A stretch of DNA of 64,000 bases from Candidatus Zhuqueibacterota bacterium (lineage in GTDB: Bacteria; Zhuqueibacterota; Zhuqueibacteria; Thermofontimicrobiales; Thermofontimicrobiaceae). The position numbers were made by a program. The stretch spans positions 288,001 through 352,000 of the forward strand of contig JBMOPW010000034.1 in the NCBI GenBank assembly GCA_049322915.1, in the 5' to 3' direction. This document shows positions 23,301-32,300 of this stretch, one piece after another. Positions within the stretch are counted from its first letter, which is position 1; every line of letters starts with the position of its first letter.

Positions 23301-26300
23301 TTCATAAACGTAATCTTTGGTGGCAGATGTAACATCCCTGATGCGATTGATGATAACCTCTGGTAATCCAGCCGAATTGGTGTGATAAGGCTCCAGGAAA
23401 AGCGGCATATAATTCCACTTGGGCCAGATGAGACCATGCGCTCGAAAAAAAAGGTCATTCTCTTTAAACCATGCCAAAGCACCCATGGTCCTTTCTCGGT
23501 CGAATGGATTCCCGGGAATCAAATATTCCGAAGTTTTAAAACGGCTCTGATCCCATTCGCCTTCCCAGGGACCCCATTTCAGATCACTGGAAAACGTGCC
23601 CGAATTGAATAGTTCTAAAAAAGTCGCTCTGTATTGTTCGATGGCATACGGACCAAATACCAGCCCCGCTTTCACTTCGGATCCAAATAAAAAAGCGTGC
23701 TTTTTCATATTGACTTCGATAGCAGCGTTGGAAATTATGTTGCCAGCTTCATCCGTGACAATAATGGTGAAATCCCCTTTTCGATATTGTTCGATACGCT
23801 TGTCCGCTTCTTCATAACTGCCCCACGTTTGAGCACGCGCCATGGTTGACAGCAGTAACAATCCAGCTAAAACGATCATCAGATAAGTAAACAATTTTTT
23901 TATCATTAAAATTCCCTTATGGTTAACGACAATACAAAATCAGGTGCAGATATTTCTGCACTGTCATTGCCTGATGAATACAATCGCAACATCCCTGCTA
24001 AAAGCCGATACTCAAGGTGAACATTTGCGCTTCAATCAGCTCGTTAAAATTCTGATAGCCATAATCGATTTGCAGTTCGGTTCCAATGAGTGCATAGTGG
24101 AAGCCGACGCCGACCGAAAGCCCGGTATTAATTTCTTCATTGAAGAGCGAATTATATCCTGCTCTCAGCGCAAACATTTTATTGAATACATACTCCAATC
24201 CCAAATTCAGGCTCTCATTGCTGTTGTTGGGATGCAGCGCATCCATCGATAACAGGAGATTGCTTTTTCCTATTCCTTTCAAAACATCCATCGATATTCC
24301 GATTCTGAACATGATTGGGAGATCATACGCTTCGGTCTTCAACAGGGCATTGGTATTTTCACTGGTCCCACTGTAACGGTCATCAATCCGGGTCTGAATC
24401 AACAAATCTTTGCCATCCATGCGCATTTTACCGCCGTAGTTGGAAATGCTCATTCCCAATTGCAGCCCATTGAATTGCGTGGTAAAAAGTGTGCCCACAT
24501 CAAAGGCAATGGCAGAAGCGCTGCTGTTATATATTCTCTCGTTGATGTATTTAAAGCTGCCGCCAATGGAAAATCGATCCGTTAAATCCCGGGCATAGCT
24601 CAGTCCCATCACGTAACTTCCCGCATCGAAAAATTCACCATTGCCATCAGGGAAATCGACGGTGGTACGTTCCATTCGATCCATAATGATAAATTTCGCC
24701 TGGGCGCCGATAGTGCCAAATCCAGCAATGGGAACCGTGACCCCGACAAAGTTGATATCAATATCCGCGATCCATTTCGTGTGACAGAAAAGCGCACTGT
24801 TATCTTTAATCCTGGCAATCCCCGCCGGATTCCAGTACATGGCAGAGGCGTCATTGGCAATGGAGACAAAAGATCCCCCCATCGCAACAGCACGGGAACC
24901 GACATCGATATTGAGATAATTGGCAACCGTGGTTCCTGTCTTCGTGAGTGAGCTTTGACCAAACAGATCGAAGCAGAGGAACAACAGCCCATTTATGATT
25001 AACCCTATTTTTCGCATTTCAATTCTCCTTAAAATTAACGCAGACAGAACCCGCTACTTGATTACCGCAAACTTTCCAGTCCGTTGTCCCACTTCATCGG
25101 CGTCGATGTAATAAATGAAGATCCCGAATCCGATTTCCATATTATCTTTGGTGAGCATATTCCAGATTTCGGCGCCATCATCAAGCTCGTTATCATGCTC
25201 GATGGTGTTTATCAACTGGCCCCGAATATCGAATATTTTTATCGTACATTTTCGGGGCAGGTGGGTGAAATGCAACTCTCGCGGTCCTCGGCCTCTGGCA
25301 TACGGATTGGCGGGCTCAAAGGAATTGGCAACAATGTAGGGATTGGGAACTACTCGAATCTTATCAAGTTGCCGGGCTGCCAGGAGCTTGTCCTCCTGCG
25401 CCGCGGTGGTCATAAATTCGAGAATATCATTCGATAGAAATGGCTTGATGGTATGAATAATGAGCGTATCGCCAGTCTGGGGATTCCGCTTCAACGAGTC
25501 GAAGGTCGCCATTTCAACAGCATGGCAGAGCGTATAGTTATTCAATGAATCAGATTGGAGAAGATAGATTTGATCCCGACGGGTCAATTTTGTATAGGAA
25601 GTAAATAATCCTTTCAAACTATCTGCGGCATAGTCCAATTCTCGAAAGGCAAAAAGAACATCTTCACCCGTAAACCAATCCACCACTTTAAAATTGACCT
25701 CGATGGATTCGGCCCTGACAGGCGTGTACTTCACTGATTTCCCAATCCCGCGCTCGCCAAAAATAATTTTCACATCGATTGGCAAGAGTTTTGTCTTGAA
25801 AGAAGGCATCGGTACCAGGGTGAAGTCGTAAATGTCAGGCGCGCTCCAGCGGCTCCTGGCTGCATCGAGCGCCAGTTCGGCGGGGTTGTCAAATACCAAT
25901 TGAAAACCATCGACAATGGGAATTTCTGCTGCAAGACTGAATTGATCCAGCAAAATTTTTGGCTCATTTGAATCGGTAATGTCGGTCAGGGTGAATGATT
26001 TTGTGGCCAATTCCGTAAGCACGGTATCATTAAACGTGACCTGATAGGTATGATCATCTTTAATAAAATTCGGATCAATCATCTCCAAATTTACGGTTCC
26101 GCTGGCATGTCCGGCAATGTGCTGCAAATCGCCGCTGCTGGCGGGGACATAACCTGCCGCAGGCGCTCTGGGAACCACGGCCACGACATTCTCTGAAATA
26201 TTGATTATTTCGCCCGTCTGTCCCAGTGTCAATTGACGGCTGCATTCGGTCGGTGGCACCAATAAGGAATCATTGCCCCGATCATAAGAAACCACGGCAT

Positions 26301-29300: not shown

Positions 29301-32300
29301 GGTCCGCATCGGCGAAATAAAACCGATCTGGTCGCGGATGTCTCGATAGTAAAGGGTCACATCCAATCCGACCGAGCTTCCCAGTTGCTGCTGCAAACCG
29401 ATTTCATAGGAAACCGTGGATTTGGCATCCAGGTCAGCGTTGCCAAAAATATCTGGCTCAGTGCCGCCGGATACTTTAAAATCAGGTCGGGCATACAAAT
29501 AGCTGAATCGTGGCATCTGGAAAAAGTGGCCGTAAGAGACATGGATAATTCCCTGATCCGAAATCGGGTAGGCAATGCCAATTCGGGGACTCACCTGCAT
29601 TTTCAGATCGACCGCTTGGTGCATGAACGCGCGTCGTTCCTCTGGCGTGTATTCCTCAAATTGACGCTCGTATTCTTCCAGACGGGATTGAATATTTTTT
29701 ATCTCATCGGGTGGCTCGATCCAATTTTTGTATTTCCATTCCTTGCGATAGGGACGATAAATATCAGGATCGCGATTATCGATAGGCTTCACATGATTCG
29801 CGTCAAAATAATCGAACCGCATTCCGATGTTCAAAATAATGTCTTTGTATTCCAGCTTGTCCTGGATGTAGGCGGAAAAAGCCTTTGGCTGGCGAGTGTA
29901 TTCATTGAACGAGGGGCTGGCGACGTCGGGCAAAACTGGCTTGAAAGCGCCGAATTCATCTTTGCTTTTGGTGACCACAAAATTTTTATTAAAATCATCA
30001 TACAGTTTCAATTCAAGACCGACTTTGAGCAGATGCTGTTTGGTGACCTGGCTGGTGATGTCAAATTTGCCCATCCAGTATGAAGAATGGCTGGCGTAAT
30101 GACTTCGATTCTGATTGAATCGGTTGAAACTTTGTCCGGGAACAGCCCCCATCATCGAGTCGGGATCAATATACCCTTTCGGCTGACCTGGATCAATAAT
30201 CCAGAACAGTCGGGTCGTGTCTGCATTTTTCAATGAAAAAAACAGGTCAGGATTTGAATCGGGATCAAAGGGATCCATGATCAGGCTGCCATCATCGCTA
30301 TCAATAAATCGTGCCAGATAATTGGGCGTTTTAAATGGATCTTTATAAAGATAACTTTCACTTTCCGAATAATCGTAGAGGAATTTTAGATCATAAAATG
30401 TAGTGGGACTGAGCATGTGCGTCAGGGCTAACAGATGCGAGTTGCCATGGCTGTAATTCTGAAGCCCGCCATCCGGAACGTACATGTTGCTTCTGCCCCC
30501 CGCGCTTCGCGGCTGGTCCGATGCATCGAAAAAAAGACTATACTTGACTTTGAAACCTGGATTCACTGACCAGGCGAGATTCATCAATCCGGTATATCGG
30601 GTGGACGGATTCAGCGCGACCAACGAGCTATCACCCGGGAGTCCTTCGGGAGTAAACCAGCGACGGCCATATTCCGAGCCAGTTAGATCCTGAAATCGGC
30701 CATGGGCAAAAAAGGTCACTTTGTTTTTCAGAAATGGAACAGGCCCGCTGAGTGCCGCCTCCAGATTGTATTCGGGATTGATGTGCTCGGCAACGGGATT
30801 TTCAGTCGCTCCGGTTCTGTTCGTTGTTCCGGTTCCGGGCGCCTGAACATCGTTGGTATTTTTGAGGACTGTGTATAAATCGTTGAATGACACGTAATCT
30901 CCGAGGTAAGCGGAAAGCCGGCCATGATAATTTATTTCTCCGCTTTTGGTGATGATATTCACGATGCCTGAATTTGCATTGCCATATTCAGCATTGAAAG
31001 CGCCGGTGACCACCTGGATTTCTTTAATTGCGTGGCTTTCGACAGCGACGCCCCGACCGGTTACAGGAACGCCATCGACCCAGGTTGCCACTTCGTCGCC
31101 CCTGCCGCCTCGAATGTGGCTCTCGCCACCCGTGCTAACCACTGCCGGTTGTAACAGCATAATGGCGCCAACCGACTGGACCGGCAGGTTGCTGATTTCC
31201 TCAGAATCCATTGTTTCTAATGAAGCGGTCATGTCTTTTTGAATCAGCGGGCGTTGCGCTTCCACGACTACCACATCGCCCTCAATCACCGTTGCTTCAA
31301 GGCTAATATCGATCGTGGTTGTAAAATCGACATTTACCCGGACAAGCTCGCGGCGGTGAGTTTTATACCCCATCATGGTTGCCACAACGGTGTAGCTGCC
31401 GGGAGGAATATTCAAAATTGCGTAATTCCCGTTCATGTCAGTCGCGGCGCCGATGAGTGTCCCTTCAATAACGACATTCGCACCGGGCAGGGGACTCTGA
31501 TTTTCCGCATCTTTTACGACGCCGGCAATCTTGCCGGTCGTGCCGGCAAAAGCATGAGGACTGAAACAGAGCAAAAGAAATATAAAAATAAAGCTCGCTC
31601 GTAATTTCATTTTGGGACTCCTGTTCTTTTAGAATATGATTGCATTGCGTTATCATGGCTATGTTTAAAATCTAACCGCGCATTATCCGTCAACAACGGG
31701 AAAGCGGGCGTTGGAATTATATAAGGTAAATTTGGTCGAGTAACAAACATCGGCGCGGATGTGAGTTTAATTTTATTCAACGCCGCCATATTTATTTTTA
31801 TTTTTGAATCATAGACCTGCTTTAGACTATCAAGATAATCATCAAAATAGGTGTGGCTTCCGCTGAGTCGGTTCGGGTCAAAATCTTTGCGCTGTGAAAT
31901 TTGTTTGATAAATTTATCCCGATGGTAAACCGCGACCAACGCGTCCTGCCATTTTCGAACATGCCGTCGCACTTGATCGGTTTTATCAATAGATTTTTTG
32001 TAGGCTTCCCGGGTAATGTATTGGTCTTTGATCAGGTCGGCGAGCGCCAGCTTGAACTGCTCCAGGAGCGCTTCACGGCTCGCAACCTCTTTTTCCCGAA
32101 AGACAAGTGGATGGGACATCAGCGCGGTTCTGAAATCATTTACAAACCACTGATCGTCATTTATTTTGCAGAAGGGGGATTGTAAAAACTGTTTATCATC
32201 AAACGTCAATGCAAAATCATTTGCTTCCGGATCATTTTTTCGTTTCAATGAAATGCCTGACTGATTATTTTCCTGTGTTTGGACAAGCCATGTTTCAAAC

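Follow-up and report, generated by a model that had tools for sequence, protein, structure and literature searches.

Positions 23998-31610 of the window (the whole 64,000-nucleotide stretch of DNA that was analysed) carry three co-oriented open reading frames (ORFs) on the minus strand, designated T, X and P, within a GH10 xylan locus. The locus contains the following features, given in the direction of transcription; CTD denotes a C-terminal sorting domain.

35202..36269, minus strand: CBM9 protein with an ordinary T9SS CTD
33262..35022, minus strand: CBM-like (Sialidase-like_CBM) protein with an ordinary T9SS CTD
33219..33249, minus strand: terminator-like hairpin with a 13-bp stem, upstream of the 521-residue ORF (consensus scan only)
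31607..33172, minus strand: 521-residue ORF, overlapping the start of T by 4 nt, no Pfam family
28635..31610, minus strand: T, TonB-dependent receptor, 991 residues (CarbopepD_reg_2 4.6e-21, Plug 6.1e-08, OMP_b-brl_3/4)
25054..28530, minus strand: X, unnamed protein, 1158 residues from a GTG start (stop codon 25054-25056)
23998..25017, minus strand: P, PorV/PorQ-family (FadL-like) outer-membrane barrel, 339 residues, private to the triad (NF033709)
23944..23961, minus strand: terminator-like hairpin between P and the GH10 gene (consensus scan only)
22290..23906, minus strand: GH10 xylanase with an ordinary T9SS CTD, secreted (GH10 8.8e-35, FlgD_ig, Por_Secre_tail; TIGR04183 31.6 bits)
20880..22175, minus strand: second GH10 xylanase, without a CTD
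19159..20838, minus strand: sodium:solute symporter (inner-membrane sugar import)

The gaps between T and X and between X and P are 104 and 36 nt. The 521-residue ORF is weakly similar to rotamase (PPIC) proteins flanking other triads, and its homologs adjoin triads on contig C40 and in loci L025, L038, L043 and L045; it is possibly a periplasmic chaperone accessory. The hairpin upstream of it may mark the 5' end of the transcription unit, the scan having found 29 such hairpins against 21 expected.

T is composed of a signal peptide, a CarboxypepD_reg N-terminal extension (residues 28-116), a Plug domain (124-215) and a large barrel. Its DVVVVEA stretch is presumably TonB-box-like. The earlier note described T as SusC-like. 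By sequence, the likeness is limited to the N-terminal architecture: the SusC/RagA model TIGR04056 reaches 71.9 bits, where the cut-off is 368.25, and aligns only to residues 27-254. The T proteins of the triads form a subfamily of their own, and full-length matches to T were found only among them. P is assigned, as claimed before, to the PorV/PorQ family by NF033709 (205.7 bits, cut-off 90), and lies below the equivalog cut-offs of both PorQ (101.3 bits, cut-off 220) and PorV (74.3 bits, cut-off 250).

Domain architecture of X

X likely starts at the ATG at 28491, giving 1145 residues (database form P0004; M14 of the GTG form). Neither Pfam nor NCBIfam has a family matching X at E<=0.01, or a relevant one at E<=10, and each of the 803 relatives of X at E<=1e-3 is named 'hypothetical'. 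The weak C-terminal CHU_C/Por_Secre_tail matches noted earlier are absent for this copy at E<=10. The domains below are numbered on the 1145-residue form, with approximate boundaries.

28423..28491, minus strand: signal peptide, residues 1-23 (sequence; helix 2-20 in the model)
26647..28410, minus strand: N-terminal domain, residues 28-615, galactose-mutarotase-like β-supersandwich (VIA-align)
26812..27534, minus strand: acidic DxDxDG-type loop region inside the N-terminal domain, residues 320-560 (sequence, invariant columns)
26257..26646, minus strand: fibronectin type III (FN3) domain, residues 616-745 (VIA-align, Foldseek)
25372..26256, minus strand: middle β-sandwich region, residues 746-1040 (all-β by DSSP, pLDDT ~90)
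25057..25371, minus strand: CTD, residues 1041-1145, PorZ/PorU-kind T9SS sorting domain, divergent (profile, structure)

No conserved lipobox cysteine is present in the alignment consensus of X or at its signal peptide, and X would thus need an anchor other than lipid.

The modeled N-terminal domain, or head, is best matched by 8rf9_A (Z 20.4, rmsd 3.4, 266 residues aligned), followed by 9ju0, 6ggy, 5nz7, 1lf6, 1ulv and 2cqs (Z 19.4, 19.2, 18.9, 18.8, 18.6 and 18.3). The fold is common to the non-catalytic N-terminal domains of GH94, GH15 and GH65 enzymes and to aldose epimerases (Z 20.4-13). It also occurs in non-sugar proteins such as YidC P1 (Z 12), and the likeness of the predicted head to carbohydrate proteins indicates no function. 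The domain contains invariant tryptophan and tyrosine residues and is interrupted by acidic loops, with invariant D/G columns at 328-334, 406-415 and 453-520 in regions of low pLDDT (49-66). From their motif, the loops have the look of calcium-binding sites. Head sequences are 27-42% identical across xylan, starch and β-glucan triads; being conserved among these, the head may not set specificity.

The FN3 assignment comes from chains matching residues 4-165 of the C-terminal half model (Z 8-9) and from Foldseek. Structural matches to the middle region reach only Z 8-9 (a FlgL domain) and give no specific assignment. The short middle genes of some triads (606-682 residues) have little in common with X beyond the CTD and match the FN3 profile marginally (13-20 bits); they nevertheless stand in triads.

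The CTD of X and its pairing with P

The CTD carries the motif VVPNPY...HF..LP...G...W...G.Y.Y...K. A profile built from 54 X CTDs was run against 177,635 PDB sequences at E<=1. It matches PorZ (5m11, residues 689-758, E 5.4e-4) and PorU (6za2, residues 1084-1144, E 5.8e-4), in both cases at the CTD, and no other PDB sequence, in keeping with the PorZ/PorU kind that had been claimed. By hhalign, the X CTD aligns with 44 ordinary CTDs of the genome over 80 columns (97.6%, E 3e-12), and the two are judged homologous. The X CTD is nevertheless a distinct subtype, which TIGR04183 and PF18962 miss. PF13585, which describes type B CTDs, has no match in X at E<=10.

PorZ had also been named as the best PDB match of the model. 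This stands for the CTD and fails for the body: PorZ is the top match of the C-terminal half (Z 11.8, rmsd 2.3, 93 residues aligned, 25% identity; next Z 9.1), and the whole model gives a TMq of only 0.09 with PorZ. For the body, the supersandwich is the informative match. Since the sequence profile aligns to this part, the 93-residue match is taken to be the CTD. According to the review PMC10202324, PorZ and PorU retain their CTDs, which bind PorQ and PorV; protection of CTDs from cleavage by cognate PorV-like barrels is also proposed there.

Of the 26 ORFs with an X-type CTD, 19 are directly followed by a P-family gene, compared with nine of the 188 with an ordinary CTD. The CTD subtype thus tracks P. 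The predicted complex of P (residues 22-339) with the X CTD (1030-1145) gives ipSAE values of 0.89, 0.91 and 0.91 (best control 0.00), a score to which the predictor's prior exposure to solved PorV-CTD complexes may contribute. The prediction covered one cognate pair only. Of 157 solved complexes, 116 attain that mark, as do two of 215 mismatched pairs. At least 92% of contacts are common to all runs, with a partner pLDDT of at least 78. Predicted contacts on P recur at regular intervals, a pattern fitting barrel loops. Gene order and predicted docking both bear out the X-P pairing of the earlier note.

Distribution of the module

The genome (6.25 Mb, 45 contigs, 96.3% complete) was searched by blastp and HMMs on our own ORF set. 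It contains 26 X-type ORFs, namely the window copy and 25 paralogs, and 18 complete triads, all co-oriented with T directly upstream and P directly downstream of X; both counts agree with the earlier ones. The reported lack of a Pfam family also holds (no match at E<=1e-3 in all 24 tested of the 26). Two further triads are cut, one by a contig end on C29 (P still present) and one at C34:268 (T nearby). The exceptions are a tandem of four X genes lacking P (C26:170124-184244), X-type ORFs standing alone at C7:45554 and C26:84207, and a T-P pair without X (C7:51682-55714).

Pairwise distances among the 18 triads co-vary, as stated before, with Spearman coefficients of 0.78 (T-X), 0.84 (T-P) and 0.77 (X-P) and a Mantel p of 0.0005 (1999 permutations), which duplication as a unit can alone explain. 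Nearest neighbours agree in only 5-9 of the 18 triads.

The CAZyme context previously assigned to the module is clear, as glycoside hydrolases, in six triads; starch, β-glucan and mannoside loci occur elsewhere. One triad is borderline, two have peptidase context and the rest lack informative neighbours; no glycoside hydrolase lies near 12 of the 18. Ordinary-CTD cargo genes flank many triads, and many others adjoin none. The T9SS of the genome includes SprA, two PorU, one canonical PorV away from this locus (C44:52873-53883, 258 bits) and 188 ordinary-CTD ORFs. A PorQ-like candidate lies at C16:110673-111335 (170 bits, under the cut-off of 220).

In other species, 46 loci were fully covered and 44 of these have all three genes, upholding conservation across phyla. 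The order is T-X-P in 38, T-P-X in five and T-X-P with a split X in one; P is missing in L044 and L053. Triad order is kept in at least seven named lineages, with genes overlapping or near-abutting. No description of the module was found in the literature.

SusD is absent from this genome, as noted earlier (no match to SusD_RagB, PF07980, or SusD-like_3, PF14322, with PF12741 and PF12771 left out of the search; B. thetaiotaomicron control positive). Within the phylum, 142 of 145 genomes contain X and 53 contain SusD (140 and 51 of 143 without the unpublished genomes G139 and G142). In addition, a Rhodothermus xylan locus has T-X-P beside SusC-SusD. Thus, T-X-P is not simply a SusD replacement; that X-P stands in for SusD, with X as a lid in its place, is conjecture.

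A proposed surface partner for the transporter

We propose, with a probability of about 0.55, that the T9SS exports X, that P keeps it at the surface by way of an uncleaved CTD, and that X captures substrate for T. T, X and P would form a single outer-membrane nutrient-uptake unit. The X CTD, unlike that of ordinary cargo, would stay uncut and docked on the extracellular loops of P, as PorZ is on PorQ and PorU on PorV, and P would therefore anchor X beside T. The FN3 and β-sandwich stalk would hold out the supersandwich head, which would capture substrate, here xylo-oligosaccharides from the secreted GH10, and hand it to T for import to the periplasmic GH10 and the symporter.

The module resembles SusC/SusD (RagA/RagB) in that a transporter with a CarboxypepD_reg extension is encoded directly before its presumed surface partner, in multiple copies whose partners co-diverge, among secreted glycoside hydrolases, CBM proteins and inner-membrane sugar transporters. 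However, SusD is helical, whereas X is an all-β protein of 1145 residues with a T9SS CTD, no lipobox and no PF07980 or PF14322 match; a PorV/PorQ barrel gene is an obligatory third member, and T falls under the SusC/RagA cut-off. The X-P pair is like PorZ-PorQ and PorU-PorV of the P. gingivalis attachment complex in the retention, here proposed, of a T9SS CTD on a PorV-family 14-strand barrel. PorZ, with β-propellers, and PorU, a sortase, are single-copy machinery, whereas X-P is multiplied at least 18-fold, is linked to a transporter and has a supersandwich-FN3 stalk as the X body. Type B cargo with PorP/SprF (SprB/SprF, PG1035/PorP) is likewise clustered with a gene for its own PorV-like barrel, which export requires and for which an anchoring role is proposed; the CTD is probably uncleaved (PMC10202324). 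Those pairs serve adhesins and motility without a transporter gene, and differ from X, whose CTD is not type B, and from P, a PorV/PorQ-family protein with no PorP/SprF listed. In TbpA/TbpB and BtuB/BtuG (both cited in PMC12578637), a surface protein captures ligand for a TonB-dependent barrel, as proposed for X; TbpB and BtuG are lipoproteins flipped to the surface, unlike the T9SS export and barrel anchor proposed here. BamG-BamH of the Bacteroidota BAM offers a 14-strand FadL-like barrel whose loops hold an extracellular protein (PMC12578637), as proposed for X-P, but belongs to the BAM machine, with neither T9SS cargo nor a transporter link.

An unlikely though credible alternative is that X, anchored by P, is an auxiliary surface binder (SusE/F- or SGBP-like) or a spacer, and T works alone. 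The long stalk fits a reaching binder better than a lid, two CBM proteins with CTDs are already in the locus, and a true SusCD pair shares the Rhodothermus locus. However, X is adjacent to T at a strict 1:1:1 ratio in 44 of 46 loci, the T-X co-divergence is 0.78 and the triad T proteins form their own subfamily; strict adjacency with co-divergence is closer to SusC-SusD pairing than to the variable SGBP complement. P could instead be only a dedicated export adaptor or shuttle, with X then released or attached to LPS by PorU as a free or LPS-bound binder. PorV acts as a shuttle, the secretion of type B cargo depends on a cognate barrel (both from PMC10202324), and there are two PorU sortases. 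We regard this as improbable, as the closest solved relatives of the X CTD are two retained CTDs rather than cleaved cargo CTDs, and anchoring is proposed for PorP-type pairs too (PMC10202324).

The PorZ/PorU-type CTD, the PorQ equivalog as the best score of P (101 bits) and the ordinary-CTD cargo genes beside many triads would suit a locus-specific PorZ/PorQ-like module that tethers GH10-CTD and CBM-CTD cargo around T and binds no nutrient. This is very improbable given the supersandwich and FN3 body of X, of which only ~93 residues match PorZ, the many triads without neighbouring CTD cargo, and the PorQ-like candidate elsewhere. Least probable of all, the three genes may be neighbours without joint function, for example under shared envelope-biogenesis regulation, with import by T unrelated to X. 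Function does rest on context, and glycoside hydrolases are missing beside 12 of the 18 triads, but seven or more named lineages keep the order, the genes overlap or nearly abut, and T, X and P co-diverge.

With X as the barrel-anchored partner of T, the module looks like a so far undescribed means of giving TonB-dependent transporters a surface partner.

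The T-X-P locus and its xylan context

Three co-oriented genes lie on the minus strand of the window, within 23998-31610:

28635-31610, minus strand: T, a TonB-dependent receptor of 991 aa whose N-terminal CarboxypepD_reg-like extension precedes a plug and a large barrel
25054-28530, minus strand: X, a protein with a T9SS C-terminal domain (CTD) and without a Pfam or NCBIfam family
23998-25017, minus strand: P, a PorV/PorQ-family barrel of 339 aa that matches NF033709

In Pfam, T matches PF13715 (4.6e-21, residues 28-116), Plug (6.1e-08, residues 124-215) and barrel families. 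The earlier note had called T SusC-like. The order of extension, plug and barrel bears this out, but the NCBIfam model of SusC/RagA, TIGR04056, gives only 71.9 bits against a cut-off of 368.25, with the match confined to residues 27-254. T is therefore SusC-like by architecture and outside the family by the curated criterion. The gene directly 3′ of T, which is X, has no SusD family match in Pfam.

The Pfam and NCBIfam matches of the neighbouring genes define a xylan locus, which contains:

a GH10 xylanase that carries a T9SS sorting domain of the ordinary kind
another GH10, which has no sorting domain
a sodium:solute symporter
two CBM proteins, each with an ordinary sorting domain

A 521-aa ORF (31607-33172, minus strand) overlaps the start of T by 4 nt. 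It has no Pfam family and is weakly similar to PPIC-rotamase proteins. Homologs of the ORF adjoin T-X-P triads on contig C40 and in loci L025, L038, L043 and L045, and rotamase genes of the PPIC kind flank both starch triads and the Rhodothermus locus (see also L104:1057-2826, L001:13392-15158 and L002:14001-15758). Its product may act in the module as an accessory periplasmic chaperone. Terminator-like hairpins bound the stretch that runs from this ORF to P on both sides, a weak indication from a terminator and promoter scan that used consensus matches only and counted 29 terminator-like sites where 21 were expected. A look-up of sequencing runs listed no RNA run that contains the locus.

A GH89 alpha-N-acetylglucosaminidase (NAGLU) gene (36672-39353, plus strand) is divergent from the xylan block. 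The window also encodes a 1665-aa hybrid two-component regulator (56254-61251, minus strand) with Reg_prop, HisKA, HATPase, receiver and AraC HTH domains; such regulators are typical of Bacteroidota PULs. Its locus, a neighbour of the xylan block, has no triad and comprises a PcRGLX-like lyase (43418-47176), RhaT, a symporter and a β-helix protein that has FlgD_ig as its tail.

Domain structure of X and its probable pairing with P

At least 803 relatives of X are found at E≤1e-3, every one annotated as hypothetical, in records of KSB1, Calditrichaeota, Fidelibacterota and WOR-3. X and its pieces match in Pfam and NCBIfam, at E≤10, just the PorU CTD model (NF033707, E 0.053) and a MopE-type metal motif (E 0.28); the weak CHU_C and Por_Secre_tail matches described in the earlier note did not appear in this search. 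X has no SusD match in Pfam and lacks a conserved lipobox Cys. Its ESM Atlas clusters are all named 'hypothetical protein', and the nearest named cluster (score 0.90) has Por_Secre_tail in 61% of its members.

The AlphaFold2 model of X, built on a 64-sequence alignment, has a pLDDT of 81.6 and a pTM of 0.72 and is almost all β by DSSP. The C-terminal 535 residues folded alone reach a pLDDT of 90.2. A structural search of 48,161 PDB representatives, independent of Foldseek, matches the N-terminal part, the head (residues ~28-615), to a galactose-mutarotase-like β-supersandwich (top Z 20.4, rmsd 3.4, 266 residues aligned). Alignments of 234-274 residues with Z of 20.4-18.3 link it to N-domains from GH94, GH15 and related enzymes; in the rows of Z 18-19 these are non-catalytic and come from GH94 phosphorylases, GH15 glucoamylase/glucodextranase and a dextran dextrinase. 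Aldose epimerases (Z ~13) and YidC P1 (Z 12) are also matched. The catalytic (α/α)6 domain is absent after the head of X. The head is interrupted by acidic DxDxDG-type loops, modeled at low confidence, and contains invariant Trp/Tyr. It is followed sequentially by an FN3 domain (Z ~9), a β-sandwich region without a specific match, and the CTD. Foldseek returned just FN3/Ig-domain chains (TMq ≤0.18) for the whole model and its C-terminal half, and was uninformative for this multi-domain protein.

The CTD is present in 26 of 26 X paralogs of the genome. About 19 of the 26 match the FN3 profile clearly; of the six that are short or divergent, five match it marginally (13-25 bits). Seven have a strong supersandwich head, among them all five long X proteins of the hydrolase loci, and in five more it is weak. 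The short middle genes (606-682 aa) have little in common with X besides the CTD.

The model places seven strands at the extreme C-terminus of X. This region has no match at E≤10 to the type A HMMs TIGR04183 and PF18962 or to the type B families PF13585 and TIGR04131. Profile-profile alignment (hhalign) with 44 ordinary CTDs of the genome gives a probability of 97.6% and an E of 3e-12. A profile of 54 X-type CTDs matches three PDB sequences in total at E≤10: PorZ 5m11 over its last 70 residues (E 5.4e-4), PorU over residues 1084-1144 (E 5.8e-4) and, as a weak match, FlgD. The full-length X profile found nothing relevant among PDB sequences (4g78, E 0.15), whereas the CTD-only profile succeeded. 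In structure, too, the C-terminal half matches PorZ best (Z 11.8, 93 residues, 25% identity). By its CTD homology, terminal position and β-sandwich fold, the C-terminus of X belongs to the T9SS sorting domain superfamily.

According to a review, PorZ and PorU keep their CTDs, which bind PorQ and PorV, respectively; the review also proposes that a cognate PorV-like barrel shields the CTD from cleavage, as PorP/SprF would for type B cargo (PMC10202324). Together with this account, the CTD matches support the earlier note's assignment of X to the PorZ/PorU kind, but the similarity appears to stop short of the body: 93 residues align with PorZ 5m11, the whole-model TMq is 0.09, and the body of X matches supersandwich and FN3 chains. 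The body of PorZ consists of two β-propellers.

P is a PorV/PorQ-family member, with 205.7 bits to NF033709 against a cut-off of 90 over residues 29-339 of 339. It falls under the equivalog cut-offs of PorQ (NF033711, 101.3 against 220) and PorV (NF033710, 74.3 against 250). The pair differs from type B CTD/PorP-SprF pairs in that P matches PorV/PorQ models alone and X has no type B CTD match. A P-family gene lies directly downstream of 19/26 X-type-CTD ORFs versus 9/188 ordinary-CTD ORFs, counts of paralogs whose events are not independent. The predicted complex of P (residues 22-339) with the CTD of X (residues 1030-1145) has ipSAE values of 0.89, 0.91 and 0.91, and the highest of its three controls scores 0.00; 116/157 solved complexes and 2/215 mismatched pairs reach this mark. 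At least 92% of the contacts agree between runs of this one cognate pair, with a partner pLDDT of at least 78, and the contacts on P are spaced regularly along the chain, like barrel loops. The model thus supports binding of the CTD to P, short of proof. PorV-cargo complexes have already been solved, and the score may therefore reflect likeness to them. Overall, the X-P pairing is well supported and quite probable.

The genome encodes SprA, two PorU, dozens of cargo CTDs and one canonical PorV (C44:52873-53883); a PorQ-like candidate (C16:110673-111335) lies under its cut-off. Two full-length PorU sortase paralogs stand in tandem at C7:385768-394041 (868.7 and 818.5 bits), and the second is the top non-X match of the X-CTD profile (35 bits). 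A PorV-family gene also directly follows nine ordinary-CTD ORFs, several of them very large (1531-2702 aa), and three of these nine PorV-family genes are of a fused form (640-691 aa). Such pairs of an ordinary-CTD ORF and a PorV-family gene include:

C13:80889-87605
C32:28797-38845
C3:148838-153639
C34:260626-268378
C14:306411-309235

The principle of a cargo with a private barrel seems to extend past the triads.

Distribution of the module

An independent ORF set of the genome (6.25 Mb, 96.3% complete), searched by blastp and with HMMs, contains 26 X-type ORFs. Of these, 18 belong to complete triads with all genes co-oriented, as many as the earlier note counted. Exceptions to the pattern are two triads truncated at contig ends, four X in tandem with no P, two isolated X-type ORFs and a single T-P pair that lacks X. 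Two further statements of that note hold: 24 of 24 tested X paralogs have no Pfam match at E≤1e-3, and SusD_RagB (PF07980) and SusD-like_3 (PF14322) have no match genome-wide, with a positive control in B. thetaiotaomicron. The four-copy X tandem (C26:170124-188206; loci L017 and L018) is followed by a 263-aa ORF, an 840-aa T-like receptor and HlyD/MacB efflux genes. At C7:51682-55714 (L019), P directly follows T with no X between them, and a 727-aa ORF with an X-type CTD lies ~4 kb upstream.

The claim that many triads sit in CAZyme loci stands for a third of them. Glycoside hydrolases adjoin 6/18 (xylan; starch, twice; GH94 with a PF10091 glucanase-like gene; GH16/GH5; GH38), but the neighbours are uninformative in 9/18, in a Pfam scan that covered the flanking ORFs except a second batch of 15 (parts of L018-L020). 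One triad adjoins a BNR protein and two adjoin peptidases (tricorn/S41; M20 with S51). Two triads without hydrolase context have GWxTD-domain genes after P (L009:14318-15745, L015:14012-15511).

At least 542 relatives turned up in a scan that took a single genome for each species, and the 79 loci kept were searched with HMMs of T and P from this genome and of the X alignment. Among the 46 with room on both sides, 38 are T-X-P, five are T-P-X, one is T-X-P with a split X, and two are incomplete (L053, T-X without P; L044, X alone). The 33 cut loci hold fragments consistent with the module. The loci were picked via X, and the count therefore measures conservation around X, not around T. Their record titles name KSB1, Calditrichota, Neomarinimicrobiota/Fidelibacterota, Ignavibacteria, Kryptonia, Stahlbacteria and Rhodothermus; Ignavibacteria are represented by a MAG of Melioribacter roseus and by an isolate, Rosettibacter primus strain 4148-Me. 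The T-P-X variant, with the barrel gene before the cargo gene, occurs in L029, L030, L048, L059, L060, L080 and L083, from some Marinimicrobia, Calditrichota and Melioribacteraceae, with no taxon recorded for two loci.

Table. Carriage in the phylum, for all genomes and without the unpublished G139 and G142
X: 142/145; 140/143
SusD_RagB (1-5 matches each): 53/145; 51/143
SprA: 143/145; 141/143

SprA is also present in all three phylum genomes without X, and the phyletic test is non-discriminating for a link between X and the T9SS.

In a complete Rhodothermus genome (G150), the locus runs LacI; T, X, P; a CBM9 protein with a CTD; GH10; rotamase; FecR; SusC, SusD; GH67; GH3 (module and canonical SusC-SusD at L103:8277-15560 and L104:4585-9595). 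A paper on R. marinus GH3 enzymes describes a xylan locus in which Rmar_1070 encodes a TonB-dependent receptor and Rmar_1071-1073 are listed as hypothetical, with a Por sorting domain annotated in Rmar_1071 and Rmar_1073, followed by GH10, sigma/FecR, SusC/SusD, GH67 and GH3 (PMC6987092). By synteny with this description, the G150 locus is probably the published Rmar_1070-1078 region and Rmar_1070-1072 are probably T-X-P. The genes had thus been seen before, without interpretation in that description. The implication is twofold: xylan use is linked to the module in a second phylum, and the module can occur beside SusCD.

Proposed function of the module

X is read as a T9SS cargo kept on P via an uncleaved CTD, acting as a surface substrate-capturing partner of T, with a probability of roughly 0.55. 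X would be exported by the T9SS, its CTD would stay uncleaved and hold it on P, and at the surface X would capture substrate for T. In line with a cargo role, the genome carries genes for SprA, PorU and PorV. The conserved gene order is the basis on which joint action of T with X-P is supported. A SusD-like lid role for X is the least supported part.

T, X and P might instead be mere neighbours. The uninformative surroundings of half of the triads leave room for this; the order T-X-P nevertheless recurs across phyla. The co-variation of T, X and P distances given in the earlier note reappeared, with Spearman 0.77-0.84 and a Mantel p of 0.0005, and nearest neighbours by these distances agree in just 5-9 of 18 triads. 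It means that the modules duplicated as units, and nothing beyond that. P might serve as an export adaptor only; against this stand the closest solved relatives of the X CTD, the retained CTDs of PorZ and PorU.

X-P might also be an attachment helper like PorZ/PorQ; the CTD matches favour such a role, and the supersandwich body speaks against it. X might instead be an auxiliary binder; its place directly after T suggests a closer tie to the receptor.

A wider proposal is more speculative and rather unlikely as it stands. In non-Bacteroidia FCB lineages (KSB1, Calditrichota, Marinimicrobia/Fidelibacterota, Ignavibacteria, Kryptonia, Stahlbacteria and Rhodothermales), X would be a T9SS-delivered lid or receptor for T, with P as a permanent socket, in a stable T-X-P machine whose head is exchanged per substrate to match glycans, peptides or other polymers. 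Such a lid would take the T9SS route, in contrast to that of a flipped lipoprotein. If true, it would be a second, independent answer to the SusCD problem, and the T9SS and PorV paralogs would gain a housekeeping role in transporter building besides enzyme and adhesin secretion.

Both parts of the arrangement are known kinds: TonB-dependent transporters that have a surface partner, and T9SS cargo paired with a cognate PorV-like barrel. In the full-text literature, with subscription journals outside the scope, no description was found of their combination in a module of TonB receptor, CTD protein and PorV-like barrel, of a multiplied PorZ/PorU-type CTD, or of the X family with its supersandwich head. 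Direct tests are possible in cultured carriers: Rosettibacter primus, and also Melioribacter roseus and Rhodothermus, which count as carriers through MAG records and synteny.

The usual sign of a polysaccharide utilisation locus is the SusC/SusD pair, and SusD-less genomes are therefore scored as being without such systems. If T-X-P works in uptake, KSB1, Calditrichota, Marinimicrobia, Ignavibacteria and relatives would hold many unrecognised uptake loci, 18 in this genome, and X-P would be a simple genomic marker of them. Many unexplained PorV/PorQ paralogs would become sockets for retained CTDs. The PorZ-PorQ principle would then widen from a single machinery part to a multiplied family, and the T9SS would be active in nutrient import.
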